Source: Candidatus Dojkabacteria bacterium (GTDB taxonomy: Bacteria; Patescibacteriota; Dojkabacteria; SC72; JAHDCA01). Taken from it: 64,000 nucleotides of DNA. Below are positions 12,928 through 54,752 of this stretch, piece after piece (position 1 is the stretch's first letter; every line of letters begins with the position of its first letter). The translations under genes were made by a program, and so were the position numbers. The notes under the pieces are model-generated. The model was not told where the DNA came from. It was given only the letters and a program-made list of their open reading frames with translations, and searched no databases. The stretch is from assembly GCA_030583845.1 (NCBI GenBank), contig CP129478.1, positions 407,175 to 471,174 of the forward strand, given 5' to 3'.

Positions 12928-15900
12928 CTACTCCGTTGCCGTAATTACCTCCGGCTCTGCATAAAGCTCTTTCGCTTCTTCAATATCGATCCTTGCCTCG
13001 TCTCCAACTGGGATTCGGCGTCCAATGATCACATTCTCCTTCATACCCTGCAAAGTATCGACTCGACCGGTGATTGCCGACTCGGTCAACACTCTTACCT
13101 GCTCCTGGAATGACATAGCAGATAGGAAGCTCTCGGTCTTCAAAGCTGTAGTCTTGATACCAAGTAGCTTTGGTGCGATCAGTGCAACATTCTTGCCCTC
13201 TTCTCGCAATCCATCATTCAAAAGCTCAGCACCATACCTATTTACCAATGATCCGATCAGATACTCTGAATCACCAGCATCCATTACCATTCCAAGCTTG
13301 GCCATCTGTCGCACGATTACCTCAATGTGTACATCGTCGATGGTTACACCCTGCTCAGAGAACACACCCTGAACTTCACGAATCACATACTCCTGTGCCC
13401 TAGTGATCGATGCATATTCTGCGAGCTTCTTAGGATCAACTGAGCCTACTGTGATCTGTGTACCTGCTGTGACCTCCTGGCCATCAATGACGAGGATATC
13501 GAATCCTGAGAGCACTGAGATCAGCTCCTCTGCATCCAACTTACCTGTTACGGTCATAATGCCGTGGTCGATCTTTACGACACCTGTAAATGGAGCCTGC
13601 TTCTCTTTCTCATGCGAGTCAATGAAGAGTGTTTGTCCAATTGTCACCTTGTCACCATCGGCTACACTTACCTTCTTTGCATTTCCAACAATATAGTGGC
13701 GCTCTGACAACTTCTTACCAGTGATCAAGATCTGTGATGAGCCATCGTCTGCTGTTGTGATGCTTACCTTACCATCAACTGAAGCAATCTCTGCCTCTGC
13801 CTTAGGTGTTCGTGCTTCAAACAACTCTTCGACTCTTGGGAGACCCTGTGTGATGTCTACCTTCTTAGCACCACCGAAGTGGAACTGCTTCAACGTCATC
13901 TGTGTACCTGGCTCTCCGATCGATTGCGCAGCGATTACTCCTGCAGCTTTTCCGATCTCCACCAGCTTGTTCTGCTCAATATCGTGTCCATAACACATCT
14001 GGCAGATACCAAGTGGAGCCTCACATACGATTGGTGATCGGACGAATACCTCGTTGATTCCAAGCTCTTCTGAGTTCTCGGCAACCTCACGGGAGATAAT
14101 TTCATTCTTCTTCAGGACTACTTTACCCTTCCCATCTTTAAGATCCTGTGCGAGCACGCGACCCTCGATTGTCTTCTCAAATGAAAGCCTTCGCTCGTCG
14201 GCTCTTCGGATAATATAACCATCACCATCATAACCACAATCTTCCATTCTTACGATTACATCGTGTGCTACGTCGTGAAGCTTCCTTGTGAGGTAGCCTG
14301 ATGATGCAGTTCTCAAGGCTGTGTCAGCCACGCCCTTACGTCCTGCACCTGTTGCCACGAAGTATTCAAATGTACCAAGACCCTCTCGGTAGTTACCCTT
14401 CAATGGAAGCTTGATCCAATCACCTGAAGCATTTCTTGCCATACCCTTGATCGACATAATCTGTCGAGCCTGGATCTGACCACCGTTTGCTCCTGACGTA
14501 ACCATCTCAAACACTGGGTTGTTCTTATCAAGACTTGCCCATGCCTCAGCAGCAAGCTCGTCTGTGAACTCATTCCACATTGTGACCGAGAGATTTGTCT
14601 TCTCCTGCTCGGTTAGCAAACCCTGTAGGTAGTTCTCCTGGAGATGCAAATCTTTCTGCTCAACCTCTTGAATCCTCTTCTTAAGATCGATGTCGACCTT
14701 ACAGTCTTCCATCGAGAATGAGAATCCTAGTGTCGTTGCAAATTTGAATCCAAGCATCTTCAGGTCGTCGAGCAATCGCACAACTTCATCGAGTGAGTAT
14801 TGATCCTTGATCTCGCGGATAATCTCATCTACATCTGACTTGCCGATTCTCTGGTTGATAAACTTGTAATCCTCTGGCAGTACCTGGTTAAACATTACTC
14901 GCCCTACCGAAGTATTGTGAACTTTGCCCTTACCCTTTACAAATATTGCCTCGTCAATCTCAAGCAAGCCTCTATCGTATGCACGTACTGCTTCCTCGAA
15001 GCTTCCGAACATCCTTGGCTTATCGCTCTCCTTATAGTCAGTCATCAGGAAGTATCCAAGCAACATATCGTTGGTTGGGCTAGCTAGAACACCACCGTTC
15101 TTGATGTCGATAATGTTGTAGGTAGAGAGCATCTTCTCAACACCCTCTTTAATAGCCTCTTCTGTCAACAATACATGCACAGCCATCTGGTCACCGTCGA
15201 AGTCGGCGTTATAAGCCTTACATACCAATGGGTGGATTCGGATTGAATCTCCCTCTACCAATACTGGGTAGAATGCCTGGATTGAATACTTGTGCAATGT
15301 TGGGGCACGGTTTAGAAGCACAGGCTTATTCTTGATAATCTTCTCAAGGATGTCCCATACAATATCTTCTTCTGCATCGATCATCTCCTTTGCAACCTTG
15401 ATGTTTGGTGCAAGCTCAGTCTCAATAAGATCGTGGATCAGGAATGGCTTGAACATCTCCAATGCGACTGCCTTTGGCAGACCGCACTGGTGCAGCTTCA
15501 ATCTTGTGTCACCAACGATAACAGCACGACCTGAGTAGTCAACACGCTTACCGAGGAGGTTTCTTCGGAAGATACCCTTCTTACCTCTCAAGTCATCTGT
15601 CAATGACTTATAAGGGAGCTTCTTGTTGTTCATCATCGGCTTGCTTGGTCGGTGACTGTTGTCGATCAATGCATCTACTGACTCCTGGAGCATGCGCTTC
15701 TCGTTTCGGAGAATTACATCAGGCGCACCAATCTCAATAAGTCTCTTAAGACGATTATTTCGGTTGATGATCCTGCGGTAGAGGTCGTTAAGGTCTGAAG
15801 TTGCAAATTTACCACCTGATAGGGCGATAATAGGTCGCAACTCTGGTGGGATGACTGGCAATGTCTTGATTATCATCCATGATGGATCGATCTTGTTCTG

Positions 15901-16854
15901 GTAGAAGCCTTCAACATACTGCAATCTTCGGATCAAAGACATCTTCTTTGCCTTTGATTTCTGATTCTTGATCTGGTGCTTAAGGTTTGAGACCTCTCCA
16001 TCGAGGTCAATCTTATCCAAAAGCTCCTGAATAGCCTCAGCACCCATCTTTGCTTTGAAGAAGAGCAGGTCACGATCCTCAAGGTCAACATACTCATCTT
16101 CTGTAATTATTGTGCCTACTGTTACCTCTTTTAGAAGCTTCATCAGTTTTGTATAGAAGGTCTCGATCGACTCCTCTCGCTCTGCAAACTCGCGTCGAAC
16201 CTTCGCAACTTTCTGGCTCCTCTTATGCTCGATCTGACTTGCCTTAAATTCTGCCTTTGACTTATCTTTCTCTTTCTTGCCACTCTGCTTGATCTGACCA
16301 TCAAATTCATCGTTCACTTCCTTAAGCGCAGCTTCCAATTCTGTATCCAGTGTCTTTCGATCTTCTGCGAGATACTCTTCAGCAGCCTTTACCTTCACCT
16401 CTCGGGACTCATTGTCCACTTCAACAACCATATATCTGGTGTAGTAAACAACTGAGAGCATCTTCTTGTGTGACATATCGAGAACGATAGACATCTTGTT
16501 TGGGACACCGTATGCAAACCATACATGTGTTACAGGTACTGCGAGGTCGATGTGACCCATTCGCTCGCGTCGCACATCTTTTCGAGTTACCTCTACACCA
16601 CACTTATCACAGATAATGCCCTTGTATCGTACTTTCTTATACTTACCACAGAAGCATTCATAATTCTTGGTAGGACCGAAGATCTTCTCACAGAAGAGAC
16701 CCTCTGGCTCCATCCTATATGTTCGGTAGTTAATGGTCTCGGCTTTTGTAACCTCACCATATGACCACCCTTTGATCTGCTCCGGCGATGCAAGCGTGAG
16801 CTTCAATGCATCGAAGTCGGAGTAGTCCTGTCTAAAGTTCTTCTTGGTTTTCAT
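12928..16854 (-). CDS. rpoC: DNA-directed RNA polymerase subunit beta' (RpoC)
   Basis: 1308 aa. NADFDGDQMAVH catalytic motif, zinc-binding CxxC N-terminus, full-length collinear. Confidence 0.97.
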   Translation of the reverse strand: MKTKKNFRQDYSDFDALKLTLASPEQIKGWSYGEVTKAETINYRTYRMEPEGLFCEKIFGPTKNYECFCGKYKKVRYKGIICDKCGVEVTRKDVRRERMGHIDLAVPVTHVWFAYGVPNKMSIVLDMSHKKMLSVVYYTRYMVVEVDNESREVKVKAAEEYLAEDRKTLDTELEAALKEVNDEFDGQIKQSGKKEKDKSKAEFKASQIEHKRSQKVAKVRREFAEREESIETFYTKLMKLLKEVTVGTIITEDEYVDLEDRDLLFFKAKMGAEAIQELLDKIDLDGEVSNLKHQIKNQKSKAKKMSLIRRLQYVEGFYQNKIDPSWMIIKTLPVIPPELRPIIALSGGKFATSDLNDLYRRIINRNNRLKRLIEIGAPDVILRNEKRMLQESVDALIDNSHRPSKPMMNNKKLPYKSLTDDLRGKKGIFRRNLLGKRVDYSGRAVIVGDTRLKLHQCGLPKAVALEMFKPFLIHDLIETELAPNIKVAKEMIDAEEDIVWDILEKIIKNKPVLLNRAPTLHKYSIQAFYPVLVEGDSIRIHPLVCKAYNADFDGDQMAVHVLLTEEAIKEGVEKMLSTYNIIDIKNGGVLASPTNDMLLGYFLMTDYKESDKPRMFGSFEEAVRAYDRGLLEIDEAIFVKGKGKVHNTSVGRVMFNQVLPEDYKFINQRIGKSDVDEIIREIKDQYSLDEVVRLLDDLKMLGFKFATTLGFSFSMEDCKVDIDLKKRIQEVEQKDLHLQENYLQGLLTEQEKTNLSVTMWNEFTDELAAEAWASLDKNNPVFEMVTSGANGGQIQARQIMSIKGMARNASGDWIKLPLKGNYREGLGTFEYFVATGAGRKGVADTALRTASSGYLTRKLHDVAHDVIVRMEDCGYDGDGYIIRRADERRLSFEKTIEGRVLAQDLKDGKGKVVLKKNEIISREVAENSEELGINEVFVRSPIVCEAPLGICQMCYGHDIEQNKLVEIGKAAGVIAAQSIGEPGTQMTLKQFHFGGAKKVDITQGLPRVEELFEARTPKAEAEIASVDGKVSITTADDGSSQILITGKKLSERHYIVGNAKKVSVADGDKVTIGQTLFIDSHEKEKQAPFTGVVKIDHGIMTVTGKLDAEELISVLSGFDILVIDGQEVTAGTQITVGSVDPKKLAEYASITRAQEYVIREVQGVFSEQGVTIDDVHIEVIVRQMAKLGMVMDAGDSEYLIGSLVNRYGAELLNDGLREEGKNVALIAPKLLGIKTTALKTESFLSAMSFQEQVRVLTESAITGRVDTLQGMKENVIIGRRIPVGDEARIDIEEAKELYAEPEVITATE

Positions 16855-19800
16855 TGGTCTCCTCGCTCTTCGCGTTAGAAATTAGATCAAGGTTTATGCA
16901 GAGTGCATTCAACTCTTTTACGAGTACCTTGAATGACTCCGGTAAGTTGATATTTTCAATCTTCTCACCATGGATAATTGCTTTGTAAGCCTGGGCACGT
17001 CCCTGGACATCGTCTGATTTGATAGTGAGCATCTCCTGAAGTGCATACGGTGTCCCGTGTGCCTCGAGAGCCCATACTTCCATTTCTCCGAATCTCTGAC
17101 CACCCATCTGTGCCTTACCACCAAGAGGCTGCTGTGTTACCAATGTGTATGGTCCTGTAGATCTAGCATGTACCTTCTCGTCAGCGATATGCTTCAGCTT
17201 CAACACATACTTCATACCTACGGCTACTTTCCTTGGGAACTTCTCACCTGTCCTACCGTCATACAGATCAACCTTCTCTGCCATCTCAAATCCGTTCTTC
17301 TTCAATTCTTCTGCAATCCACTCGCTGTTTACATCCTCAAATGTTGGGATTGAGAGCTTGATTCCAAGCATCTCGGCATAGTGCCCGAAGTGCACCTCAA
17401 GCGCCTGACCCATGTTCATACGCTTTACAAATGTAGGTGTCAGGACAATATCAACTGGCTGTCCATCTGCCGTGAAAGGCATATCCTCAACTGGCCTGAT
17501 AGCTGCGATTGTGTTCTTGTCTCCGTGCCTACCCGACAGCTTATCACCGTAGTCTACTTTCTTGGTCTCTGCGACCCATACCTTCACCTGCTTTAGCACG
17601 CCTGGCTTCAACTTATCGTCATTCTCGACTGATAGCATCTGCGTCTTAACAACAATACCTTTCGATCCGTGGGGAACTCTGAGTGATACATCTCTTACTT
17701 CGCTTGCAGCTTTTCCGAAGATTGCTCTCAAGAGCCTTTCCTCAGCTGTAAGCTCCTGCTCACCTCTTGGTGCTACGATACCGGCGAGGATATCTCCACC
17801 ATTTACACGTGCACCTACTCGTACAACACCCTCGATATCAAGATTGTGCAAGATTCTGATCGCTCACATGTGGGATATCTGCAGTAAGTACCTCAGGTCC
17901 GAGATCTGTATCTCGGAGATCTTGCATATATTCTCGGATATGGATTGATGTCAAAGTGTCATCACGCACAATGCTCTCTGAGATAACTGTTGAGTCCTCA
18001 TAGTTATAACCCTCGTAGAACATCAATGCTGCTCGAATATTTGTACCAAGTGCTAGCTCACCATTGTCCATAGTTGGACCGTCAACGAGCACATCATCTT
18101 TCTTAAATTTCTGTCCTACATCGACACGTGGCCTCTCTGAGAAAGCTGTGTCATAGTTCGACCTGAAGAATTTGGTGATCTTGTACTCCTTCTTTCCAAG
18201 CTTCTTATAATCAACCAAGATATGGTCTGCATCAAGTGTCAGTACTACACCATCATCTTCTGCGAATACACCCCAACCTGACTGTCGAGCAACGATCTCT
18301 TCATATCCTGTACCAACCATAGGTGCCTGCTGCTTAAGCAGAGGGACAGCCTGTCTTTGCTGGTTTGAACCGGTAAGCGCTCGCTTCGAGTCGTCGTGGT
18401 GAACAAATGGGATAAGAGCCATACCTACACCTGCCTGCTGTGCAGCAACCAGGTCGATATAGTTCACCATCTGTACATCCTGCATCAAGAAGTCTCCCCT
18501 ATACCTTACAGGTACGATCTTCTCAAGGATGTTGCCATCTCCGTCCACCTTGATGCCTTGCAAAGTAACATGCGCATCTTTCTCACTTGCTGCATCTAGA
18601 TACTCGATCGACTCTGTGATGAACGATCGAACCTCTAGCTCCTTCATATCCTTATTCTTAGCCAACTTTGTCGCAATTGCGGCTGTGATTACCTCACCCT
18701 CTTTTACGATAAGTTTGCCAGCCTCTTTGATATCTTCTGCGGCTAATCTTCCAACTGCATCCTTGCCATTGTTCTTTACATGATTGCGGACTACGTAGTA
18801 TGGAGCCTCGATAAAACCAAAGTCGTTGATCTTTGCGAACATTGCCAGCTGGTTTACAACACCGATCGATGCGCTTTCTGGGCTGGTGATAGGGTCGATA
18901 CGTGAGTAGTGTGTGTGGTGAACCTCACGGATTGAGAATGTAGCTCTCTCCTTGGTGATACCACCTGGGCCTGATGCGGTTACTTTTCGCTTATTCTCAA
19001 GCTCTGAAAGGATATTTGCCTGATCCATGAACATTGAAAGCTGGTTTGAGCCGAAGAAGTTGAGGATCGCAGCCGAGATAGGCTTGGTGCTGACAAGCAT
19101 TGATGGTGTAAGTTTTGAATCCTCACCGTACATGCTCATCTTATCCTTAATATTCTTCTCTACTCTTCGTACACCTACTCTGAGCTGGTCGATCAATACC
19201 TCACCGACGCTTCGAATTCTTCGATTTGACAATGAGTCGATATCGTCCGCTGTTTCAACGCCGTTGTTGATCTGGATAAGCTTCTTGATTATCAAGATCA
19301 GATCATCTGTGTAAAGCCTGCACTCTGGACCCTCAAGAGGATACTCTGTGCCAAGCTTTCGGTTGAGCTGGTAACGACCAACCTTTCCGAGGTCAAACCT
19401 TCTGTCATTGAAGAAATGTCCCTTAACATACTTCTCTGCACTCTCCAGGGTTACATTCTCATCAGGTCGGAGCTTGTTGTAGACATTGATTACCGCCTCT
19501 TCTCGTGATCTTGTGAAATCTCTTGCCAATGTAGCTTCTATATATTTGTGGTCTTCACTTGTATCTACATCTTTGAAAAGATCCCTTATCTCATCGTCTG
19601 ACTCATAACCCAAAATACGGAGAAGCTCGGTAAGGAGTACCTTTGGTCTCTTCTGTACCAATCTAATTGAGATTACATCGTGCTTGTTTACTTCAAATTC
19701 ATACCACTGTCCTCGTGCTGGCATCAGCTTTGCCGAGTAAAGGTTTCTTGCTGGAGATTTATCACTGATGTCGAAAAGCACTCCCTCTGCTCGCACTACC

Positions 19801-20213
19801 TGATGGGTAACTACTCTGCGTACACCATTAATAACAAAGTAGCCATCTTCAGTCATTAGAGGCATATCTGCCACGAATATCTCCTGCTCCTTGAGCTCAC
19901 CAGTCCTGTTGTTCAGCAGCTGCGAAGTCACGTATACAGGCGCATCATAAGAAAGCCCCTTGTCAGAGGCTTCTTCTACTGTGCGATTTGGCTTCCCATA
20001 TCGAAAATCCTTAAAGTCGAGGGTCCACATCCTCTCCATAGTGTCTTTCACCGGGGTGATTTCGGAGAAGAGGTACTCAAGGCCATCCTTCTTAAATTCT
20101 TCAAACGATTTGATCTGTGCTTCGATAAGATTCGGAAATTGAATCTTTGACAGATCTGTAGCACCGAGGTTGACTCTGCCCGCCCGGTTACTCAAGATTT
20201 GCTTTGCTGCCAT
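16832..20213 (-). CDS. rpoB: DNA-directed RNA polymerase subunit beta (RpoB), split into two overlapping ORFs by an apparent +1 frameshift near 17840-17851
   Basis: The N-part ORF (to about 17838) ends ...ADIPHVSDQNLAQS*. The C-part ORF begins (TTG)HNLDIEGVVRVGARVNGGDIL. Together they align collinearly with E. coli RpoB ...[32 protein letters not shown]. One extra nucleotide within AATCTTG restores the frame. Confidence 0.9.
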
Positions 20214-20607: not shown

Positions 20608-22891
20608 ATGGGAAGACGAAAAAAAGCGACATCGGAAATAACTATTCATAGTAAAGAAACCAGGATTATACTTGGTTTATTCCTCATACTTATAGCGCTT
20701 ACGCTTATCGCTGCACCGTTCAGCACAGAGGCTGTCTTCGAGCCGATTGTATTCTATCTTGGGGTACCATCAGTGGCCTGGGGAATCCTCATACTCCTCA
20801 TGGCAATCCGCGTCATCAAAGGCCCGAGCAAGTTTACAAACTGGAAAACCATTACAGGTACGCTTCTTATCGCTCTAATTCTCAACATCCTCTTCACATT
20901 TTGGATCCCCGAGGAGATATTAAGCAGCCAGACAGACTTCTCCAATGAAGGTGGCCAACTCGGATATATATTGCACACACAGCTAAATGCCATGGTAGGA
21001 GACTTCATCGAATTTGTACTTATTATTGTATTAATAATTGTAGCCTTCTCCCTCATCTCAGGTGTAAGCCTCGAACGGATCTCAAATAGTGTGGGCAACC
21101 TATTCGACAAGCTATTTGAAAGCCGCAATAAACTGAAGCTTCCAAAAGGTGAGGATGACGACGGAATCAGCATTGTAGATAGTATGTTCAAAGGCGGCGA
21201 CGACGATGAGGCTATAGATGAAGCAATTGAGCCAGAGATTGAAAATGGAGCCGAGCCGATCGCGAATATGAGGGCAAAAACCGAGCCAAATATGAGTGCC
21301 AACGTCGAGGCAGAGATCCGTGAAGCAACAGGCAAAGAGTTCGTAGAATCACCAAAGTCAAACAGCAAAGAAAGCAGTGAAGAGGAAAGCAGTACACTTA
21401 GCGAGCCACTATATCCAAACTGGAAATTCCCACCAGTAAACCTGCTCCAGAAGCCACAGGTCAGCCCGCAAGACCCAAACCTACACAAGCGCAACGCCAG
21501 CGTCATCGAGAAAACCTCTGCGCAGCTTCAATATTGAGTCACGTATCAGCAAAGTCACAATCGGCCCAACAGTCGTCCAGTACGCTCTAAGCATTACCGT
21601 AGGCACCAAGGTCGCAAAAGTGCGCAACCTCTCAAATGACATCGCATTGGCTCTAGCGACACCTGAGTCACAAATCCGCATCGAGGCTCCGATCCCTGGC
21701 ACCTCATTAATTGGTATCGAGATCCCCAACCCTACCCCGAATTTTGTATTCATCCGTGAGCTGGTCGAGAAGCTGAATGAAGAGCACGACAAATATAGAC
21801 TACCTATCATTCTTGGTAAGAATGTCGCTGGCCAACCAATCATCAAAGACCTCACAAGTCTCCCCCACCTCTTGGTCGCAGGCGCGACTGGTACCGGTAA
21901 ATCTGTAGGTATCAACTCGCTACTAACTGGTCTACTTATGACCAAGTCTCCTGATGAGCTAAAGCTTATTCTCGTCGACCCAAAGATGGTTGAGATGGCG
22001 CCTTATAATGGCATCCCTCACCTACTCACTCCGGTCATCACAGATATGGAGCTGGTAGTAAATGCGCTACAATGGACTGTCGAGGAGATGTTGAAGCGGT
22101 ATAGGGTATTGAAGCAGATCGGAGCCAGGAATATCACCGAGTACAACGACAAGGTTGGCGATCTAACAATGCCATACATAATAGTAGTAATCGATGAGAT
22201 GGCTGACCTTATGCTTACGACTGGAGTAGATGTAGAGTCAAAGATTGTACGACTAGCTCAGATGGCACGAGCAGTGGGTATTCACCTAATATTGGCAACC
22301 CAGAGACCTTCTGTAGATGTAATCACTGGCTTGATCAAGGCAAACGTGCCGGGTCGAATCGCATACAGCGTATCGACAGCTATCGACTCACGAGTAATCA
22401 TCGACCAGACTGGCGCAGAGACACTGATCGGCAAGGGAGATATGATGTTTAAATCACCTTCTACAGGCAGACCTATCCGTATGCAGGGTGCTTGGACTGA
22501 CACAGTCGACACCGAGGCGATCATCAGCTTTATCAAAGACCAGACGAAAGAGCTTAAGTATAGCGACGCAATCACCCAGCCGAAAGAAGAGAAGTCAGAA
22601 GGCGGAGGAGCTGCTTCGGGTCATTCAGATGACGCAATGTTCGCAGATGCACTCGAGGTAGTTGTAAATGCTCAAAAGGCATCGGCCTCCCTACTCCAGA
22701 GGAGATTGAGGATCGGTTATAACCGGGCTGCCAGATTGATTGATGAATTGCATGAGGCAGGAGCAATAGGCCCACAGGAGGGTAGTTCACCACGAAAAGT
22801 GCTAGTCTCCAGCAGTGATCAGATCTTAGGCGCAGGCAGCAGTGACGTTGATGATTTTGCAGACAACCAGGACGACAAGTCCGACTTCTAG
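20608..22891 (+). CDS. ftsK: DNA translocase FtsK/SpoIIIE (N-terminal membrane domain, linker, motor, gamma domain), with an apparent +1 frameshift near 21521-21529
   Basis: ORF1 (20608..21537) gives 4-TM and linker. The frame-2 reading from about 21440 gives ...FNIESRISKVTIGPTVVQYAL... (the FtsK alpha/beta start), then the Walker motor VAGATGTGKS and gamma domain LLQRRLRIGYNRAARLIDELHEAG. The junction KTSAQ(L)/FNIES matches the FtsK ETLAEFGIEA region after skipping 1 nt. Confidence 0.85.
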
Positions 22892-23007: not shown

Positions 23008-24051
23008 ATGAAATTAAGAAAAAAGACCAAAATTAGAGAGCCGAAAAAACCGGCAGCGCCAATAAGCACTGCCAATATGCTCACCGCAGGCCAGGTGCTT
23101 AAATCGCGCCGTAAAGAGCTTCGATTAAGCATTGACCGCGTCTCCGCCGAGACCAAGATTCAGAAGCGATATATTGAGATCATCGAGGCCGATGATTATG
23201 ACCAGCTCGAGAGCACTGTATTCATCTCTGGATTCATTAAAATCTATGCCGAATACCTCTCTCTTAATGTAGATAAAGTGCTCGCCCTCTACAGACGAAA
23301 CAGCAGCACCAAGGCTGACCAGGCAAAGAAAGCAGCAAAAGAGGTCGAGACGCAAAGCCTGAAGGATTATCTCACCCCGCAGACATTAGTGCTGCTTCTG
23401 GTTGCCGCGACAATCGTTGGCTTGTTCAGCTATATCGGGGTGCAATTTTATAGATTCCAAAAAGAGCCATACCTGATAATCGCCTCCCCTACCGAGCTTA
23501 CATTTGAGACCACAGATGAGATCCTACTTATCAAAGGTCAAACAGAGAGTGGAACTATACTTACCGTAAATGAAGATACTGTACCTTTGGATGATCAGGA
23601 CAAATTCGAGTATGAGTACGATCTGCAAGAAGGCAACAACACCATCATCGTAAAAGCAGTTAGGAATAACAATAAGCGAAGCGAGACCCTCAAGGTGCTT
23701 GAGGTAAAATATATCACAGAGGAAGAGGCAGCACAGCAGGCAGAAGAAAACCCTCCACCCGAAGAGGCGCCACCACCAGCTACCGAGTACAAGCTGAAGG
23801 TCGAAGTGGTCGACGACGAGGCTTGGATCAAAATCGTGGTTGATGATACTCAGCAGTATGCCCAGATCCTGCCTCCTGGCTTTAGCGAAGAGTTCACTGT
23901 AAAATCCAGCTTCGAGGTGATCTCCGGCCGCCCGACCATTACCAATGTATATGTAAATGGTGAAGCGCGAGAGATGGTACTCGACTCTGAGTCGGGGACT
24001 GCCAAATTGAACTGCTCAATTAGTGGAGATACTTTATCTTGCCAAGACTAG
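23008..24051 (+). CDS. RodZ-like membrane protein (N-terminal XRE-type HTH, one TM, C-terminal domain)
   Basis: 347 aa. LTAGQVLKSRRKELRLSIDRVSAETKIQKRYIEIIE (HTH), then a TM helix LVLLLVAATIVGLFSYIGV, and a C-terminal beta-rich domain as in RodZ/DUF4115. Confidence 0.5.
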   Translation: MKLRKKTKIREPKKPAAPISTANMLTAGQVLKSRRKELRLSIDRVSAETKIQKRYIEIIEADDYDQLESTVFISGFIKIYAEYLSLNVDKVLALYRRNSSTKADQAKKAAKEVETQSLKDYLTPQTLVLLLVAATIVGLFSYIGVQFYRFQKEPYLIIASPTELTFETTDEILLIKGQTESGTILTVNEDTVPLDDQDKFEYEYDLQEGNNTIIVKAVRNNNKRSETLKVLEVKYITEEEAAQQAEENPPPEEAPPPATEYKLKVEVVDDEAWIKIVVDDTQQYAQILPPGFSEEFTVKSSFEVISGRPTITNVYVNGEAREMVLDSESGTAKLNCSISGDTLSCQD

Positions 24052-28115: not shown

Positions 28116-29391
28116 CGATCAGATAACCGAAATAGCCCAATCACTCATTCTTCAGTTCCAGCACCCACAGATTCCAGTCGAATATGCCCGTTATCTCCAG
28201 TACGCACTTTTCTTCATAATCCCTTGCCTACTTGCTCTCGTCCTCACCCCTATCATCGGCAAGATTGCCAACGACCTAGATATTCGCAACGATACAAAAA
28301 CATTCACGAAAAATAAGCTCAATCGATATGAAAATAACTCCAGAAGGGTTAAGAAGACTCGGATCCCACTGCTAGGAGGGCTTGCGGTTATTCTCCCGCT
28401 CCTGGTTCTAATTCCTCTATTCTTCGGATTTAATGAAATTACTATACCTATACTTATAGCAATATCTATTCTTACAATTGCTGGGATTATCGACGATATC
28501 TACAATCTTCCAGGCAGCATTCAGCTGCTCGCACAGCTAGCAGCCGCCTTCATATTTGCAGCCTCTGTAGTCAATCTTGAAGTAATCAAGATACCTTTTG
28601 ATGGGTTTATCGACCTCTCCATGTACACTTGGAACGGCAATATCATGGGCTTGCCATGGGAATTCGTGTTCCCGGGAGATCTGATCGCAATGTTTTGGGT
28701 AGTTGTAGCTATCAATGCTATTAAATGGGTATCGGGATTAGACGCGCTCATGGAGTCAAATCTGATAGTAGGCTTCTTTATGATATTTATCATTGCTGCG
28801 CGTGGTGAGGCTGCACTAGTGCTCCTGCTCAGCGCCATGCTCACAGGTGGGCTTGCCGGATTTACCTTCTACAACTTCCCACCCGCCAAGATTATGTCGG
28901 CCGCCACTGGCAAGACTGTATACGGCTTCTTGGTCGCTGCCCTAGCACTGCTTAACGACACTAAGCTCGCAATTACGATTTTGATAATGCTGCTGCCACT
29001 GGTCGACTTCCTATTTGTCGTAACCAAGAGGTTTATCGTCAACCGTCCTAAATCTTTCAAGGAGACCATTCTTACACCTTTCAGACTGCTTAGAATCTCT
29101 GATACAAACCATATCCACCACCAGCTTCTTAAGCTTGGCTTCTCGACAAAGCAGATCTTGCTGCTCGAAACCAGCATCACCTTGCTGGCTGGCTCTATCG
29201 CGGTGCTCACGACAGAGGCGTATAGGCTGTTCTTTATCCTCGTGGGTGGTACTTTAATGCTGCTTTTCCTTACCATTCTTCATGTGAAGACTTCGAAGAT
29301 CCAGAAGCCGGTCGAGGAGAAAGAGGACAAGCCGGAAAAGAGACCACCTGAGCCTCCAAAGGGATCCCCGGAGTCGCGGTATTCTTATTGA
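28108..29391 (+). CDS. glycosyltransferase family 4 polyprenyl-phosphate phospho-sugar transferase (MraY/WecA-like)
   Basis: 427 aa, about 10 TM. IAGIIDDIYNLPGSIQLLAQ resembles the MraY/WecA cytoplasmic loop motif. Confidence 0.6.
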   Translation: MYNDQITEIAQSLILQFQHPQIPVEYARYLQYALFFIIPCLLALVLTPIIGKIANDLDIRNDTKTFTKNKLNRYENNSRRVKKTRIPLLGGLAVILPLLVLIPLFFGFNEITIPILIAISILTIAGIIDDIYNLPGSIQLLAQLAAAFIFAASVVNLEVIKIPFDGFIDLSMYTWNGNIMGLPWEFVFPGDLIAMFWVVVAINAIKWVSGLDALMESNLIVGFFMIFIIAARGEAALVLLLSAMLTGGLAGFTFYNFPPAKIMSAATGKTVYGFLVAALALLNDTKLAITILIMLLPLVDFLFVVTKRFIVNRPKSFKETILTPFRLLRISDTNHIHHQLLKLGFSTKQILLLETSITLLAGSIAVLTTEAYRLFFILVGGTLMLLFLTILHVKTSKIQKPVEEKEDKPEKRPPEPPKGSPESRYSY

Positions 29392-29461
29392 TTTGTCATG
29401 TGTGCTCTCTCACTGTGAGCTTGGGTCGAGCTATACAAATGCCAAGCTCAACGTTCGTTCG
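29389..29461 (+). repeat. compound hairpin starting at the GT4 stop codon: 17-bp outer stem (TGATTTGTCATGTGTGC/GCACACATGACAAATCA) enclosing a 9-bp inner stem TGAGCTTGG...CCAAGCTCA
   Basis: Perfect inverted repeats read directly. The inner 35-mer GTGAGCTTGGGTCGA..TA.AAATGCCAAGCTCAA is shared with 35229-35264. Confidence 0.6.
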
Positions 29462-29548
29462 CACACATGACAAATCAGCCGCAAGCCTGAGGAAGAAGTT
29501 TGCCATTTATTAATCAGCTATGCAGTATTATCCGCACGGATTGATACA

Positions 29549-29869
29549 TATTCTCAGGTAGGCTTCTTTATAAGACTACGAGACTTGGACTCATTTATAA
29601 GTAATTTCTTTGAGCTGGCTGGCTCTCGAAAAGAGCATTGGGTTCATCAATAATGTCAGAGGCTCGACATGAACCCACCGCGAGTTGAGAGTGAACAATA
29701 CTTAAGATAAATATATACTCAGGTAGGCTTCTTTATAAGACTACGAGATTTGGACTCATTTATAAGTAATTTCTTTGAGCTGGCTGGCTCTCGAAAAGAG
29801 CATTGGGTTCATCAATAATGTCAGAGGCTCGACATGAACCCACCGCGAGTTGAGAGAGCCAGCCAGCTC
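29549..29869. repeat. tandem direct duplication (2 x 143 bp, period 165 bp, 1 mismatch) ending in a 17-bp perfect inverted repeat that encloses the ATG at 29834
   Basis: Copy 1 is 29549-29691 and copy 2 is 29714-29856. The inverted repeat TGAGCTGGCTGGCTCTC (29776-29792) / GAGAGCCAGCCAGCTCA (29854-29870) holds a nested stem TGGGTTCAT/ATGAACCCA. Confidence 0.8.
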
Positions 29870-29884
29870 ATATATAATGAACCG

Positions 29885-35288: not shown

Positions 35289-35588
35289 AACATGGGTTGC
35301 AGAACGAAAAGTCTCGCTCACAAGTCACCAAAATTAGCATGCCGTTGCATAAATGGTGGCTCACTTACACAAGTAACGTGAGGGCAATGACCTCCATAGC
35401 GAAGAGGAGTAATATACACGAGACTTGGGAACCACGTCGAAGAATTCTGCTTCCACGAAGCTTCATTCGAGGTGAGCTCAATTCTCACTCACAAGACTTG
35501 TAGGTTAACAGAGGGATATACGAACAAGGTATTCATCAGTGACGTGGGGGAAGATTTTCGAGACTTTGCTCGCAACGTCGAGAAAATT

Positions 35589-35879
35589 TTACTCCACTTC
35601 ACTTTTAAGTTCTTCGATTCTCTGCAGCGTTTCCTCTTCAATCTTCAGAAGATCCTCTGGGGGGACCTCTAAATTATCCGTTCTGGTTTCAATCTCGTCC
35701 AAGATTTCCGAGTCGAAGCTGCTGCTAATCGGGCGAAGCTGAGATTCAACACCCGGAGTCACCTCAACAGAAGAAACAGTATCGTACAAAGTGATTCCTG
35801 ACCAGGCGATAGCCACGACTGTCAGGAGCACAATTATGAGTGTCAAAAAGACTCTATTCATAGAAGAGCGGGTCATCAA
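35589..35879 (-). CDS. small membrane protein (possible pilus-assembly accessory, PilP-like position)
   Basis: 96 aa with an N-terminal TM. Overlaps the upstream pilO-like gene by 26 nt. No diagnostic motif. Confidence 0.35.
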   Translation of the reverse strand: MMTRSSMNRVFLTLIIVLLTVVAIAWSGITLYDTVSSVEVTPGVESQLRPISSSFDSEILDEIETRTDNLEVPPEDLLKIEEETLQRIEELKSEVE

Positions 35880-36462
35880 TCTTATATATCAAAATCGATA
35901 TAGAGGCGCGGATATTTCCATCGGAATCCTCCTCTGTCGAGTAGGTGATTTTGTCGATGATTGGGTACATTGGCATCGCCTCGATATCCTTCATGAATGG
36001 GATGATGTCTTCCTCCTTACCAATCACAGTTATGTTTGCCCTCCAGTTCTCAAGAACCACGGTCTGGATTGGAGGCTCGCGGTCGGGCTCGTCGAAGCTG
36101 ATATTGTTGAGCACGAAATTATTCTTCTCGGCCAGGCCCTCAATATTGGACATAAATAGGCTAAAGTCGCCGGTGTGCGGGAAGATCAGGGTCACTTCCT
36201 TGGCTGTATCCTCGAATTGTGTAAATTGAGCATAAAGTGAGCCAATTGCATTTATCTTTGCCTCGAGCTGCTCTTTATACTGCCTTTTGGTCTTGATCTC
36301 ACTCTGAACACGGATGATCGTGGCCACCGATGGGCGGATTGCGAATACGACGCAGATAATTACAACAATAAAGGTAAAGACTGTAAACCCATACACCTTC
36401 TTCTTGGAATCCTTGATGGATTCAACCTGTTCGATTATTTTTTGGTCTTTTTCAATTGCCAT
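35854..36462 (-). CDS. PilO-like type IV pilus assembly protein (N-terminal TM plus coiled coil)
   Basis: 202 aa. Short cytoplasmic N-terminus, TM FTVFTFIVVIICVVFAI, then a coiled coil QSEIKTKRQYKEQLEAKINAI. The TAATG overlap with the upstream pilN-like gene indicates translational coupling. Confidence 0.45.
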   Translation of the reverse strand: MAIEKDQKIIEQVESIKDSKKKVYGFTVFTFIVVIICVVFAIRPSVATIIRVQSEIKTKRQYKEQLEAKINAIGSLYAQFTQFEDTAKEVTLIFPHTGDFSLFMSNIEGLAEKNNFVLNNISFDEPDREPPIQTVVLENWRANITVIGKEEDIIPFMKDIEAMPMYPIIDKITYSTEEDSDGNIRASISILIYKIDDPLFYE

Positions 36463-37082
36463 TAGTTTGATGCCTCCGATGGAGCTGAGGTGTCGCTTGC
36501 AGCAGCAGCGCTTTCTGCAGCCTCCTCCTGATTTATATTAAAACCAACCGAGAACTCGATCTTATTGCTTGAGCTACCCGATTTATTGAGCAACACCTTG
36601 AGACTACTCTGGTCATAATTTGGATTTTTCTTGAGCAATGATTCATAGCCTTGAACTGCCTGGAAATCATTAGCGATGAAATTCATCGACACCCTACCTC
36701 CAACATACGACATGTCCACTAATTCAACATCAGACGGCACGCTTTCTGTAATTGAAGCGACCACGGTAGAGTTTTTCTGCTGCTCGGCCGAAATCCTATT
36801 CATATCCGAGAGAAGTCTGTGCCAGTTGTTATATTTAATCTCATTATTTCTGAAGAAGTCGTCAGCAAGTGTTGCAGACATTGTGTTAACCTCGCCGGTG
36901 AGGTCGTTGTTAATGCGGTCAAACGCAAATCTGAATCCGAATACTACCAATACTATGCCTAGAACTGCGATTAGGATATATTTGCCGAAGCTAAAAAGCC
37001 ACTCGTAAAGCCTCTCCCAAGAGTCCTCCGGGGTGTTTACGGGGGTGAGCAGGTTTATTGATTGTGGGACCTCATTGGCCAT
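36462..37082 (-). CDS. PilN-like type IV pilus assembly protein
   Basis: 206 aa. N-terminal cytoplasmic segment QSINLLTPVNTPEDSWERLYEW (PilM-binding-type N-terminus), a TM, and a periplasmic domain. Architecture matches PilN. Confidence 0.45.
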   Translation of the reverse strand: MANEVPQSINLLTPVNTPEDSWERLYEWLFSFGKYILIAVLGIVLVVFGFRFAFDRINNDLTGEVNTMSATLADDFFRNNEIKYNNWHRLLSDMNRISAEQQKNSTVVASITESVPSDVELVDMSYVGGRVSMNFIANDFQAVQGYESLLKKNPNYDQSSLKVLLNKSGSSSNKIEFSVGFNINQEEAAESAAAASDTSAPSEASN

Positions 37083-37163
37083 GTCTGGGCAGTACGAAAT
37101 CTAACTATAAAAAGTATAAAGAAAAGTCGAGATTTAAACAACTATACGGGTCAGCCCTCCGCA

Positions 37164-37197
37164 GGGCGTCCGACCACTTCAAAGTGGTCGGACGCCC
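37164..37197. terminator. near-perfect 15/16-bp hairpin GGGCGTCCGACCACTT-CA-AAGTGGTCGGACGCCC in the intergenic region upstream of pilN
   Basis: Read directly. An overlapping alternative small stem GCCCTCCGCAGGGC (37152-37168) allows mutually exclusive folds. Confidence 0.6.
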
Positions 37198-37413
37198 TGG
37201 TTCGTATTACGCTACTCTGGGCTGGAAAGTCGGGGTTTGTTACAATGGAATTAATAAGCTGATTAAGAATCTTAAATGGATTTAATAATAGATCACCTAC
37301 TTTATTTTGCGGTAACACTTGGGATCGGCTTCGCGCTAGGCTGGAAGCTGAAACCATCAGAAAGTCACCAAAAGGAAGAGGAAAAAGTTCGGGAGTAAGC
37401 CTGATCTAGAATT

Positions 37414-37437
37414 GCTCGGACCCGATCGGGTCCGAGC
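37414..37437 (-). terminator. perfect 24-nt palindrome GCTCGGACCCGATCGGGTCCGAGC, 18 nt after the stop of the 37455..38390 gene
   Basis: Read directly. On the minus strand it is followed by AAUUCUAGAUC, a weak U-tract. Confidence 0.5.
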
Positions 37438-37454
37438 ATTAAGGTCTGAGCTAG

Positions 37455-38390
37455 TTACAGAGGGTTTACACCTACAGCCGGGGTGAATGTAATATCAAGA
37501 CTTCTAGCTACTTCATCGCATATCGTATATCCAGGATCATCGTCACAAGACATCCAAACCCACTTAGCATCCCCATCATAAGAAATTTGGAGTGCACTCG
37601 GACCACACGGTGCTGGAACGTTCTCTCCCATAACCAAGCATGTGCCAGACATTGTTAGGTCGGAAACATAATTTGTATCCAGAGTTGCTGTTCCAATAGA
37701 CTCATGTCTATGGATTATCCCTATGTTCGGATTTTGTGCTACTTCAGTCAACGCGACACCCTCGAATGAGCCACTAAAGCCTTCATACCAGACAGAGAAT
37801 TTTAAATCTGTATTACCAGCGCCAAGAAGCAACTTTCCTACCTCTGGGGAGCTATCTGAGTCTGGCCCATTCTGCTGTACCACAAAGTCAGAACGGGACG
37901 AAGTAAACACTACATCATATTGACCCAATGCTTCTCCCGTGCCGAGCTCATATGTATAGAATGTATAATCATAGGCAGTAAGTTCTGGCTCATCCACCGG
38001 TGGTGTAGTTTCGTCATCTTCATCGTCCGTACTTTCATCTGTACCCTCATCTGTTGTATCCTCGTTCTCGTCTTCGTCATCCTCAACATCTACGACAATC
38101 GTGGGATTATTATCCTCTTGAGATTGCTGATACATCGTGTAACCTATGTAGCCAAGCAATCCAAGCAGAAGTAACAGAATCACCAACAATAGAACCATCA
38201 TTTTCTTCTTTTTCTTAGCTTCATCATCGGTAGGTGTCTTAACATCTCCTGCTGGAGTGTTTGTATCTGCATCGAAAGCTGGAGTTTCTACAGCTGTATC
38301 CTTTACACTGTCCATCTGAGGTTTATCTGAGACTGGCGCTGCGCTATTTACAACTGTACCACCCTGCTTTGTACTCTCTTTCGGATCCAT
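37455..38390 (-). CDS. hypothetical membrane-anchored protein (acidic linker, C-terminal Cys-containing domain)
   Basis: 311 aa. KKKKKMMVLLLVILLLLLGLLGYIGY (TM). A long D/E/T-rich acidic tract. C-terminal domain with 6 Cys. Confidence 0.5.
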   Translation of the reverse strand: MDPKESTKQGGTVVNSAAPVSDKPQMDSVKDTAVETPAFDADTNTPAGDVKTPTDDEAKKKKKMMVLLLVILLLLLGLLGYIGYTMYQQSQEDNNPTIVVDVEDDEDENEDTTDEGTDESTDDEDDETTPPVDEPELTAYDYTFYTYELGTGEALGQYDVVFTSSRSDFVVQQNGPDSDSSPEVGKLLLGAGNTDLKFSVWYEGFSGSFEGVALTEVAQNPNIGIIHRHESIGTATLDTNYVSDLTMSGTCLVMGENVPAPCGPSALQISYDGDAKWVWMSCDDDPGYTICDEVARSLDITFTPAVGVNPL

Positions 38391-44274: not shown

Positions 44275-45237
44275 ATGACTACCAACAAAGTACAAAGCAT
44301 AACCGACGAACAAATTTCGCCTGAAAACGACCCTTGCAATACAACAGCACAGCCTGAGGTCGATCCCATCGACTCACTAATATACAGACTTATCGACGAG
44401 GCACCGCATTATCATGGATTAGACCCTTTTACAGAGAATTACCAATACGGTTCTGATAATCCGTTTACACGATCCGAGCGGGCAAAAGCAATTCACTACA
44501 GGGTAAAAGAATGGCTGGACTATCTAGAGGAGGAGAAATTATACATTACATCAGAGGATCAGTCCTCTGCAGGCTCTTTCACATTAGTGTCGAAGCTTAA
44601 GGAGTTTGAAGGTGATAAAGAATTCGAGGCTATCCTTCTCAATACATTGGTTCGGCTTTCAGCTCAGGAAATTGACACTCTCAGCTGTGCAGATATATGG
44701 AGAAGCGATCTTTCAGCAGTGCATGAAGCAATCAAGAGATCAAGAATACTCTTCGATCAGAGAAAGGGTAATAGAACTCTCACAAAGCATGCGCTAAGAG
44801 TGGGTACAGCTATCTGCCTTGCGCTAATTCTTGCTTCATGCGCGAGTGGCGACTCACAACCAGAGTTTGACCATATAGTTTGTAGAGTTGGCGACTCCTT
44901 GGAAGATTTCTATCCAGTGCAAGGATCGGACGGGACAGTGAGTTACACATCAAGTGGGATTGAAGACCCATGGATAACATTAAGCTTTGGATCAGGCACA
45001 ACTCATCCTCTTTACTTAACACCCGCTGGCAATGGCACACCACCTCTACCTCAAGGTACTAATATCGAAGGAGTGGTCGCACACAGAGGATCCACAAGTA
45101 CAGACCCATTAGGAAGAATTCTTGGCTATTTGGAGTATCTATTCGATCCAAAAAAGGTCGTATTTGAGGCGACTGTTAGCCCTGATGATCCAAGCAAAAA
45201 ATGTGTAGGTGTGATGATTCCACCAACTCTACCTTAA
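44275..45237 (+). CDS. hypothetical single-pass membrane protein, paralog A (conserved N-terminal soluble domain, mid-protein TM with Cys, divergent C-terminal domain)
   Basis: 320 aa. The N-domain shares ...RAKAIHYRVKEWLDYLEEE... and ...LSAQEIDTLSCADIWRSDL... with the downstream paralog. TM LRVGTAICLALILASCASG. Confidence 0.55.
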   Translation: MTTNKVQSITDEQISPENDPCNTTAQPEVDPIDSLIYRLIDEAPHYHGLDPFTENYQYGSDNPFTRSERAKAIHYRVKEWLDYLEEEKLYITSEDQSSAGSFTLVSKLKEFEGDKEFEAILLNTLVRLSAQEIDTLSCADIWRSDLSAVHEAIKRSRILFDQRKGNRTLTKHALRVGTAICLALILASCASGDSQPEFDHIVCRVGDSLEDFYPVQGSDGTVSYTSSGIEDPWITLSFGSGTTHPLYLTPAGNGTPPLPQGTNIEGVVAHRGSTSTDPLGRILGYLEYLFDPKKVVFEATVSPDDPSKKCVGVMIPPTLP

Positions 45238-45257
45238 CAGTACACAATCTATCAGTA

Positions 45258-46181
45258 ATGACCACCGAAACAATTAGAGAAGAGATTAATAATAACGACT
45301 GTAACCAACTCCCCGAGAATTTGCTTATGCTTATTCAAAAATACCCACACCTCGAACAGCAGGCGATTTTAGCATCGAACAATATCCAACATTTTAGATC
45401 AGACGACCTCGGCACGGTGCACCAAGAATTCAATGACCATGCAGAGAGACACAAAGCTATAGCCTACAGGACACTCGAATGGCTGGAGTACCTAGATTCA
45501 ATACACGAGGGAGAGGTATTCCAAGAGCTATTTGGATTTGAAGCGGCAGAGCAATTTAGAAGTGCTTTGAGCGACCCAGATGAATCAAATATGATTGCCC
45601 TATCATTAGCAGTTATCTCCGCTATAGAGATCAATACGCTCTCGGTCTCCAATATCTGGCCGATGGATAAAAAGAAGCTTATGAGATCAGTAAGTCAATC
45701 TCGTGAAATCTACCCTCATATCGCTAAAAGTCTTGGCACATTGACAATGGTGCTATTGATAGCAGTTGCCTGTGCAACTCCATCTACACCTCCATACAAT
45801 TATGTTGTTTGTAGTAACGGTTATGAGCTCACCCTTTATACACAGGGTACAGGCACGGGAACTATTGGGGGGTTTAGGCGCGAACTGACTGCACCACCAG
45901 GTACAAACCTAACATTGGGATTACCAGGTAACTCTGGATGGGTAATCGATATCTCGCCACGTGCTCCGAGTCGAGGGATAGGGCAACATTCATCCGGATT
46001 TCTCGATCTAGAAGTTAATCCAACCATTCCTAATCCCCCTAATCCCCCTAATCAGATACCCGATCTTGATGAACTTGCCGACTCTTACCTTCAACCTCCA
46101 CTTATAACTTATACATCAGTTGATCCTCTAGCGATAGGAGACAGCCCTTCTAGCACATGTACTGGAATAAATGTTAGATAG
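45258..46181 (+). CDS. hypothetical single-pass membrane protein, paralog B (track ORF from 45201; start likely MTTETIRE at 45258)
   Basis: Shares N-domain motifs with paralog A (HKAIAYRTLEWLEYLD; ISAIEINTLSVSNIWPMD). TM LGTLTMVLLIAVACATP. The C-terminus is Pro/Gly-rich with PNPPNPPNQ and unrelated to A. Confidence 0.55.
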   Translation: MTTETIREEINNNDCNQLPENLLMLIQKYPHLEQQAILASNNIQHFRSDDLGTVHQEFNDHAERHKAIAYRTLEWLEYLDSIHEGEVFQELFGFEAAEQFRSALSDPDESNMIALSLAVISAIEINTLSVSNIWPMDKKKLMRSVSQSREIYPHIAKSLGTLTMVLLIAVACATPSTPPYNYVVCSNGYELTLYTQGTGTGTIGGFRRELTAPPGTNLTLGLPGNSGWVIDISPRAPSRGIGQHSSGFLDLEVNPTIPNPPNPPNQIPDLDELADSYLQPPLITYTSVDPLAIGDSPSSTCTGINVR

Positions 46182-46497: not shown

Positions 46498-48672
46498 ATG
46501 GAAAATAGAAATAGAAGACCAGGGCAAAATGCTCCTGGCAATAGTTCCGGATATCGATCCGGAGGAAGCTCTGGGCGTAGACCCAGAAATAACTCTGGAC
46601 ATAGGTCCGGAGGCTCTGGCCGCAATAGGCGCCCAGACAACAACAGTAGCCGGCCAAGGCACAGCTCCTACACGAGCCGTCCCACGGAAGGCAGACCAAC
46701 TGAGAATCGGTATTCAGACGATCGTCCGCGTACCTATTCCCCTAATCGAGGGAGTAATCCTCGCGGTCGTTCTAGCCGTCCACAAGGTGGCAGCGATCGA
46801 AGAGGTAGTAATCGAGGTCACTCTGGTGATAGAAACAGATCGCGTAGTTCAAACCGATCTACATCAGGCTATTCAGGCTCGCGCAACTTCCAGACCCCAC
46901 GACCGGCTCACCGCCGAAACAACCCACGGGTATATGGCGAACGTAAATTCATAACTCCAAAGGTATTTATCGAGCATGAGCCAATTGCCCCTGACGATAT
47001 AGAGAGCAAGCGACACCTCAAAGTGTGCACCCTCTCAGGTACAGGCGAAGTAGGTCGTAACTGTAATTTCGTAGAGTTTGGCGACGACATCATTATGATC
47101 GATGCTGGATTCTCATTCCCTGGACAAGAATTGTACGGAATCGATTACCTTATCCCAAATATCAGCTACCTACGCAAGCATAGGGATAAGATACGTGGAA
47201 TTTTGATCACACACGGCCACCTAGATCACACTGGGTCACTCCCCTACATCTTGCCTGAGCTCGATTTCCCAACTATATATGGTGGGAAATTTGCAAACGC
47301 CCTGATCAAGGCTAGGTTAAAAGAATTTAATCTGGATCAGAAAGTGAAGTTTGTCGACATTGGCAGGAATACCGAGATCGAGCTTGGCAGCTTAAAGGCC
47401 AAATTCATCGGTGTGACCCACAGCATCCCAAATGCATTCTCAATCTTCGTATCCTCATCTGACGGAAATGTATTTTTCTCAGGAGACTATAAGATTGACG
47501 AGGCACCAGCCAACGAGCCGGAGACCGACTACACTGCATTGAAAGAGCTGCAAGGAAAAGTAGACCTAGCGTTGATGGAAAGCACAAATGCCGATTCAAC
47601 TGGCAAGTCAAAATCTGAGCAGGAGATCGCAGGAAATCTCGAGAGAGTGATCACCGGCCACGACGGTAGAATTGTACTGGCAGCATTCTCCTCACTGGTG
47701 TCACGACTCTATTCTGTGATTAAAATCGCAGAAAAGACTGGTCGCAAAGTATTTATCTCGGGTAGAAGTATAAATCTATCTATCCAGATCGCTCGTGAGC
47801 AGGGATATATAAATGTACCCGATGGGCTGATCTTAGACGAGCGCAGGCTTTCCGAATTCCCTGATAACAAGGTGCTATTCCTTTGTACCGGCAGTCAAGG
47901 CGAAAGATATGCCGCACTAAACAGGATTTCACTTGGTGAGCATAAGTACTTCAAAGCGAAAGAGGGCGATATGGTCGTGCTTTCAGCATCGGAGATCCCA
48001 TCAAATGTGGTTCAGATTGAGAAGATGACCGACCGCCTGATCAGCATGGGGGTCGTATTGATCCAGAAAGATTACGAGCAGATCCATGAGAGCGGTCACG
48101 CGCTTCAGATGGATATGCAGATGATGTACGACATGGTAAAGCCACGTGAGATCATCCCGATCCACGGCAGCCTCACCATGCGCTACAAGAATAAGCGCAA
48201 CTATGTGAATTGGGGAATGCGCGACGACCAGGTGCACCTCACCAAAGATGGCCAGGTATGGATCCACACTGGAAATGGCGAAAACGGTAGCTGGAGGCGT
48301 GGCAAGCAGATCCCTTCCAAGCCGATATTGATCGACGGACTCGGTGTTGGTGATATTGGTGACGCAGTTATCAAAGATCGCCAGCAGTTAGCAGAGTACG
48401 GCATGCTCACAGTGATTATGAACCTAAGCTCGAAGAATAAGCAGCTGATTGGAAATCCCCGCTTCGTATCGAGGGGCTTCGTATATGTGAAGACATCGGG
48501 CGAGCTATTCGCCGAGGTCGAACAGATGGTTCGCGATATTCACCGCGACTGGATCGGACGGGCTGGTTCGAAAGACACTCGTGAATTGACCCGTGAAGTT
48601 GAAGATGCGATTGGGAAGCTGCTCTATAAGCGCACTGAGCGCGAGCCGATCGTGATGGCCGTAGCATTGTAA
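46498..48672 (+). CDS. rnj: ribonuclease J (beta-CASP metallo-beta-lactamase RNase) with a 150-aa Arg/Ser/Gly-rich N-terminal low-complexity extension
   Basis: Core: LSGTGEVGRNCNFVEFGDDIIMIDAGFSFP...ILITHGHLDHTGSLPY (HxHxDH), then beta-CASP and a C-terminal domain. The N-terminus NRNRRPGQNAPGNSSGYRSGGSSGRRPRNNSGHRSGG... is disordered and RS/RG-rich. Confidence 0.9.
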   Translation: MENRNRRPGQNAPGNSSGYRSGGSSGRRPRNNSGHRSGGSGRNRRPDNNSSRPRHSSYTSRPTEGRPTENRYSDDRPRTYSPNRGSNPRGRSSRPQGGSDRRGSNRGHSGDRNRSRSSNRSTSGYSGSRNFQTPRPAHRRNNPRVYGERKFITPKVFIEHEPIAPDDIESKRHLKVCTLSGTGEVGRNCNFVEFGDDIIMIDAGFSFPGQELYGIDYLIPNISYLRKHRDKIRGILITHGHLDHTGSLPYILPELDFPTIYGGKFANALIKARLKEFNLDQKVKFVDIGRNTEIELGSLKAKFIGVTHSIPNAFSIFVSSSDGNVFFSGDYKIDEAPANEPETDYTALKELQGKVDLALMESTNADSTGKSKSEQEIAGNLERVITGHDGRIVLAAFSSLVSRLYSVIKIAEKTGRKVFISGRSINLSIQIAREQGYINVPDGLILDERRLSEFPDNKVLFLCTGSQGERYAALNRISLGEHKYFKAKEGDMVVLSASEIPSNVVQIEKMTDRLISMGVVLIQKDYEQIHESGHALQMDMQMMYDMVKPREIIPIHGSLTMRYKNKRNYVNWGMRDDQVHLTKDGQVWIHTGNGENGSWRRGKQIPSKPILIDGLGVGDIGDAVIKDRQQLAEYGMLTVIMNLSSKNKQLIGNPRFVSRGFVYVKTSGELFAEVEQMVRDIHRDWIGRAGSKDTRELTREVEDAIGKLLYKRTEREPIVMAVAL

Positions 48673-52321: not shown

Positions 52322-52441
52322 GTGCATTAATTGCGACAGCCTGCCCACGATTGCCAACGGTTAAAGAATTTACTATGCTCAATTAAGAATTTAACGCTAC
52401 TTTGGTATTAATTCGCCAAGTCGCAAGAATAATAGAGGATC

Positions 52442-54580: not shown

Positions 54581-54588
54581 ACCGACAC

Positions 54589-54732: not shown

Positions 54733-54752
54733 GTTGGCACTTAGGTTCACAC

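Follow-up and report, generated by a model that had tools for sequence, protein, structure and literature searches.

Programmed +1 frameshifting is well described for prfB, the gene of release factor 2, whose signal consists of CUU UGA C together with an upstream Shine-Dalgarno-like element, and for the elements Ty1 and Ty3, in which the ribosome shifts at a slowly decoded ('hungry') codon; CUU serves as the slippery codon in both prfB and Ty1. An RNA polymerase beta subunit encoded in two pieces is also known, in nature (the archaeal subunits B' and B'') as well as from experiments with engineered E. coli. In addition, draft genomes and metagenome-assembled genomes (MAGs) contain consensus indels that disrupt reading frames, most commonly in the context of homopolymers.

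Here we describe an rpoB gene that is split in the genome of an uncultured Candidatus Dojkabacteria bacterium, a MAG from which a window of 64 kb was analysed; all coordinates refer to positions within this window. As in prfB, a +1 shift would be needed and a CUU codon is located few codons before the 0-frame stop, but the shift does not map to this CUU, and there is neither a stop codon in the A site nor a Shine-Dalgarno-like stimulator nor any conservation. With Ty1 and Ty3 the gene has in common the direction of the shift and the Ty1 slip codon CUU. However, the codons that follow the CTT site suggested earlier (GCA) and the site derived from homology (CAG) are those most used in this genome for Ala and Gln, respectively. 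Two adjacent ORFs jointly cover RpoB, as in archaea, but here the break lies inside the Rpb2_6 domain, consists of a frame change and not of a stop-start junction, and is common to no relative. What this locus has in common with the consensus indels of MAGs and draft genomes is one additional base in a gene that is essential and present once, its restriction to one assembly, the collinearity of the two halves with full-length homologues, and a nearby second indel that independent assemblies of the species lack; differences are the lack of a homopolymer at the rpoB site and the otherwise very high accuracy of the assembly. We estimate a probability of roughly 80% that the interruption of rpoB is an assembly or consensus indel in the deposited MAG rather than a real mutation or a case of recoding. 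A strain mutation is less likely than an assembly indel; recoding is unlikely, and so is a two-piece beta subunit.

Two collinear halves of one rpoB gene

The N-terminal rpoB ORF extends over positions 17838-20213 on the minus strand (791 aa; WKZ31502.1, QY318_01935), and the annotated C-terminal ORF, on the same strand, over positions 16832-17851 (339 aa, TTG start at 17851; WKZ31501.1, QY318_01930). They share an overlap of 14 nt, and the frame of the 339-aa ORF is +1 relative to that of the 791-aa ORF; ORF and frame mapping thus bear out the arrangement given in the preliminary description. The +1 frame is open from 17863, i.e. the C-terminal part comprises 16832-17863 (minus strand), and the stretch open in both frames (17841-17863, minus strand) is the sole possible place for the frame change. 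The Pfam domain RNA_pol_Rpb2_6 is distributed over both ORFs: the 791-aa ORF ends with domain positions 2-133, and the 339-aa ORF starts with positions 134-373. Because the junction falls exactly at 133|134, the two halves are perfectly collinear, and this collinearity identifies both ORFs as parts of a single gene whose frame changes by one base. The deposited sequence does contain the split, which is no chance arrangement of ORFs.

In GenBank both halves are labelled 'MAG: hypothetical protein [Candidatus Dojkabacteria bacterium]' and belong to a contig of 1,036,382 bp. The neighbouring proteins of the window have consecutive WKZ accessions from one record, and the rpoB fragments were found solely in a single NCBI record (WKZ31501/WKZ31502).

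Relatives place the frame change upstream of CTT

The preliminary description had compared the two halves with E. coli RpoB and had concluded that one nucleotide within AATCTTG is skipped. Any one-base skip from 17863 to 17841 restores collinearity with the E. coli protein and leaves the protein length unchanged; since all these skips are equivalent, an alignment with E. coli is unable to place the shift, and the choice of AATCTTG was under-determined. Close relatives are more informative in this respect. Deletion of one base results in an RpoB of 1126 aa, which equals the length of the two nearest homologues (P0001 and P0123; 92% amino acid and about 81% nucleotide identity), and the nucleotide alignment of the window's rpoB with its nearest relative over 3.38 kb contains a single gap, one base long, at GATC[A]GAAT (window, GATC[A]GAATCTTGCAC; relative, GATC-GAATTTTGCAG).

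For a broader comparison we used 163 related loci (80 GTDB species representatives, 80 JGI metagenome contigs and three Logan contigs; loci with a match were counted). In tblastn searches all of them, 163 out of 163, showed one in-frame segment spanning the rpoB junction. In this comparison, of the kind proposed for sister genomes in the preliminary description, no related locus shares the interruption (0/163). At the three positions after a conserved D/E, R-[I/V]-L is found in 137 of the 163 loci and Q-N in none. The +1 frame of the window reads RILHNLDIEG at this place, the 0 frame QNLAQS*; the final six codons of the 791-aa ORF (QNLAQS) represent out-of-frame read-through that is terminated by TGA at 17840-17838. 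The C-terminal part reads AIRILHNLDIEGVV and agrees with the clade consensus from R on.

The predominance of R-[I/V]-L among the relatives, taken together with RILHNLD in the +1 frame of the window, points to C17858 or A17857 as the extra base. On the evidence of these alignments the frame change is thus placed between the GAT (Asp) codon and the Arg codon (17858/17857), with the putative extra base at 17857-17858 on the minus strand (gene strand GAT-C-A-GAATC); the CTT site considered earlier (CTT at 17852-17850, skipped G17849) follows about 8 nt downstream. Deletion of either C17858 (leaving AGA) or A17857 (leaving CGA) gives HVSD-RILHNLD within an RpoB of 1126 aa. The site as it occurs in the window, extra base included, is GATCAGAATC, and its forms without this base are GATCGAATC or GATAGAATC. 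Of the earlier proposal, the collinearity of RpoB after a one-base skip stands (Pfam 133|134, 1126 aa), while the position of the skip within AATCTTG does not, as the relatives place it at 17858/17857. The agreement of R-I-L in the +1 frame with 137 of the 163 relatives also indicates normal protein constraint on the downstream frame, extending as far as the indel itself.

The best 120 homologues are all full length (1105-1144 aa), and no second rpoB copy was seen among the homologue matches. These data also bear on a beta subunit that functions in two pieces, with separate products of 791 and 339 aa, the second of which would restart at TTG 17851. The overlap of 14 nt and a TTG start at hand would suit such an arrangement, but it is highly improbable: the break does not coincide with a domain boundary but interrupts the conserved Rpb2_6 domain (133|134 of 373), the conserved R-I-L residues would be lost, no Shine-Dalgarno-like sequence precedes TTG 17851, and no relative has a split subunit, neither among the 120 best homologues nor among the 163 loci.

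A second one-base indel in ftsK

A similar break is present 3.7 kb away in ftsK, on the plus strand. The N-terminal ORF (20608-21537, 309 aa; WKZ31503.1) contains the 4TM domain and ends in out-of-frame read-through; together with its +1-frame continuation to 22891 it constitutes one gene. The C-terminal part, open in the +1 frame over 21440-22891 (plus strand), comprises the alpha, motor and gamma domains and appears to be without a protein entry, WKZ31503.1 and WKZ31504.1 being consecutive. Here a C is in excess, at 21515/21516 (plus strand; AAAAC[C]TCTG). Two relatives (L004 and L005) lack it and encode an intact FtsK of 761 aa; the alignment with them shows a single 1-nt gap, at window position 21515, and the lengths of the remaining gaps are all multiples of 3.

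Closer still are L166 (DRR779146) and L167 (DRR779145), two Logan contigs that stem from other sequencing runs and were retrieved with the MraY protein of the window. Around the ftsK site their identity to the window amounts to 97-100% per 300-nt bin, with 12 identical nucleotides on each side of the indel, but both lack the extra C and encode an intact FtsK of 760 aa, the same length that is obtained for the window after removal of this base (site form, AAAACTCTG). Across 10.8 kb the extra C is the sole coding indel of the window with respect to these contigs. Two independent assemblies of the species thus do not have the ftsK frameshift. In the window, the extra C is located at the 3' edge of a cluster of 21 strain SNPs (20892-21483).

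The preliminary description had attributed to ftsK the same geometry as to rpoB, a CTT codon followed by a skipped base. It is true that in both genes the 0 frame ends at a stop a few codons past a CTT. The extra C of ftsK, however, precedes the CTT in CAGCTTCAA by 10-11 nt, and the common geometry does not hold; it was only apparent because the ends of the 0-frame ORFs had been compared. Among the Leu codons of the window, CTT is the most frequent. Two cautions follow for similar cases, namely that the point of the frame change cannot be read off from where a 0-frame ORF ends, and that a distant homologue such as that of E. coli cannot place the shift; the shared 'CTT' motif vanishes with close relatives.

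No evidence for recoding

Programmed +1 ribosomal frameshifting, or another form of recoding, would restore full-length RpoB and FtsK, and both breaks do need a +1 shift and show a CTT shortly before the 0-frame stop. Several lines of evidence nevertheless make this explanation very unlikely. By homology, the frame changes 8-11 nt before the CTT in both genes, at GAT|C/A|GA in rpoB and at ACC|T or AC|C|T in ftsK, i.e. in neither case at CTT. The P-site codons at these places, GAU in rpoB and ACC or ACU in ftsK, are unable to re-pair in the +1 frame, and the 0-frame codons CAG and GCA are not slowly decoded candidates but the commonest for their amino acids; a rare codon was found at neither frame-change site. 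There is no in-frame stop at either site, the rpoB stop following only 6 codons downstream. At neither site is a Shine-Dalgarno-like element present; GGAGG, AGGA and GAGG are all missing from the upstream sequence CCACATGTGAGCGAT. The 97 nt downstream do not fold better than shuffled sequences (z = -0.87). Finally, the interruption is seen in none of the 163 relatives, and near-identical strains have an uninterrupted ftsK. Programmed slippage at CTT, as suggested in the preliminary description, is thus contradicted by the position of the frame change in both genes, by the lack of a known +1 motif and by the lack of any relative with an interruption, and programmed frameshifting is already largely refuted.

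Other ways of bypassing the break fare no better. For transcriptional slippage an A/T homopolymer of about 8 nt or more was sought, and none exists at the rpoB site; the ftsK site contains A4 at most. Read-through of UGA (code 25) was considered and rejected: the 0 frame beyond the TGA is unrelated sequence, so read-through would be unable to restore RpoB. It is very unlikely that this strain carries the extra base as a true, fixed insertion and produces its beta subunit, full-length or in two pieces, either by a +1 shift at GAU-C-AGA without re-pairing of the tRNA or by termination and reinitiation at TTG 17851. If this were true, an essential gene would depend on recoding in a bacterium of the CPR, which would be remarkable, but nothing here points toward a polymerase gene that depends on recoding.

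Consensus error or genuine mutation

Both indels are one base in size, have a defined position and are absent from all relatives. We infer that the extra base of rpoB is an artefact of assembly or consensus calling and not a mutation. The interruption occurs in one assembly only; it represents a single-base difference in length in an otherwise collinear sequence, and its sister indel in ftsK is missing from assemblies of the same species. In addition, rpoB is essential, and draft assemblies commonly contain long contigs that carry a short RpoB fragment. We propose that one spurious base (C17858 or A17857) entered the consensus and split an intact single-copy rpoB, that the extra C in ftsK would be a second indel of the same kind, and that the organism most likely makes an ordinary beta subunit of 1126 aa (DIPHVSD-RILHNLDIEG). 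The preliminary description had offered an indel error, a strain-level pseudogene and programmed +1 slippage; an indel error fits the evidence best, while slippage at CTT finds no support.

What speaks against an artefact is that the rpoB insertion lies outside a homopolymer. Moreover, the assembly is otherwise very accurate, contigs from SRR24881069 being 100% identical to the window over about 25 kb. With an assembly as accurate as this, errors should be rare, and two of them within 4 kb call for an explanation, for which a mixture of strains appears the best candidate. Both indels are located in one stretch, 15.2-27 kb. Here the contigs assembled from short reads are interrupted (15205-18802) or have strain alleles that differ from those of the window; elsewhere, about 45 kb of the window match contigs of this species, and no frameshifting indel is seen. 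The Logan contigs, which come from four runs, show 98-100% identity to the window, and all of them break at 15205 in rpoC and at about 18802 in rpoB; both end points are shared by L002, L003, L166 and L167, and the rpoB junction falls inside this unassembled gap. Below 19125, L166 runs into an rpoB sequence with less than 73% identity, a cross-species join in a conserved gene. Such contig breaks and strain alleles point to mixed strains or species, which are able to confuse consensus calling, and the rpoB indel may have arisen where co-occurring strains or species disturb assembly, i.e. in the 15-27 kb stretch.

The contigs retrieved include no independent sequence of the same species across 15205 to about 18802, and the 100% identical SRR24881069 contigs among them cover none of 15.2-27 kb. 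Exact matches in the contig index were not found for the 791-aa ORF, rpoC, the RodZ-like protein, DnaG or the N-terminal fragment of ftsK. An indel-tolerant exact DNA pattern over the junction, which was confirmed to match the window itself, had no match in JGI metagenomes or GTDB representatives, a set that does not include the source genome. Repaired versions of RpoB (DRIL, DQIL, DQNLH) and two repaired versions of FtsK are absent from a collection of 15 billion proteins, and junction-spanning queries of 279 and 657 aa recovered no fragment from the same species, the best match being 91% identical.

Alternatively, the insertion might be genuine DNA, a recent rpoB-null (and ftsK-truncated) allele of a subpopulation or of dying or defective cells that was captured as the consensus. 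This would agree with the otherwise high accuracy of the assembly and with the position of the ftsK indel beside 21 strain-specific SNPs, where the window carries a distinct strain allele; a truncated FtsK could also be tolerated, as E. coli is viable without the C-terminal motor of the protein. We nevertheless regard a genuine insertion as unlikely. The essential rpoB is present as a single copy in the small genomes of the CPR, and no second copy was seen here; both downstream frames are fully open and conserved; ftsK is intact in near-identical strains; and a lethal allele cannot be the majority in a population whose abundance sufficed for a closed MAG of 1.04 Mb.

The rpoB split is thus most probably an ordinary one-base indel in the deposited MAG and no new kind of feature. 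Its biological weight is little, being most probably a one-base error in the GenBank MAG QY318.

Two further possibilities for the origin of the indels were considered and rejected. ATCGA occurs in both repaired sites, suggesting a link with a methylation motif, but TCGA is present 407 times in the 64 kb, about every 157 nt, and at this frequency its proximity to the indels is not significant. Chimerism of the rpoB/rpoC segment is contradicted by its identity to relatives, which amounts to 73-88% per 400-nt bin (12.9-20.2 kb) and is even across both genes.

Other features of the window

Candidates for a third frameshift, at 44275-46181 and at 35589-37100, turned out to be separate genes, both in independent contigs and by Pfam. 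At 44275-46181 there are two overlapping ORFs on the same strand without Pfam matches; the independent contigs contain them as two genes, of 320 and 307 aa, and show no indel. The pilN-like cluster (35473-37505) is strain-variable, with about 95% identity to L166/L167 and many small gaps, and so is the RodZ-like gene (23602-23901), with about 91% identity to the same contigs. For RNase J (46498-48672), the MAG annotation contains an ORF of 724 aa (WKZ31522.1), while the annotation of identical DNA in L170-L172 comprises a gene of 141 aa and an RNase J of 525 aa; this discrepancy is a difference in start site or gene call and not an indel.

The intergenic region after mraY (29389-29870), for which no Rfam match was found, contains a tandem duplication of 165 nt with two 144-nt copies that are 99% identical (29548-29691 and 29713-29856). 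Strains L166-L168 lack the duplication and show a plain long hairpin at this place. At 29389-29477 the window forms a hairpin with arms of 36 nt, in which the differences between the arms and those of L166 are compensating.

At about 52000-62000, genes for baseplate-J, 'phage holin family', SUKH-1 and SHOCT proteins are found together with a tRNA-Ser (55972-56058), and the G+C content drops to 0.40-0.42. This region may represent an integrated phage-like element or an island encoding a contractile system.
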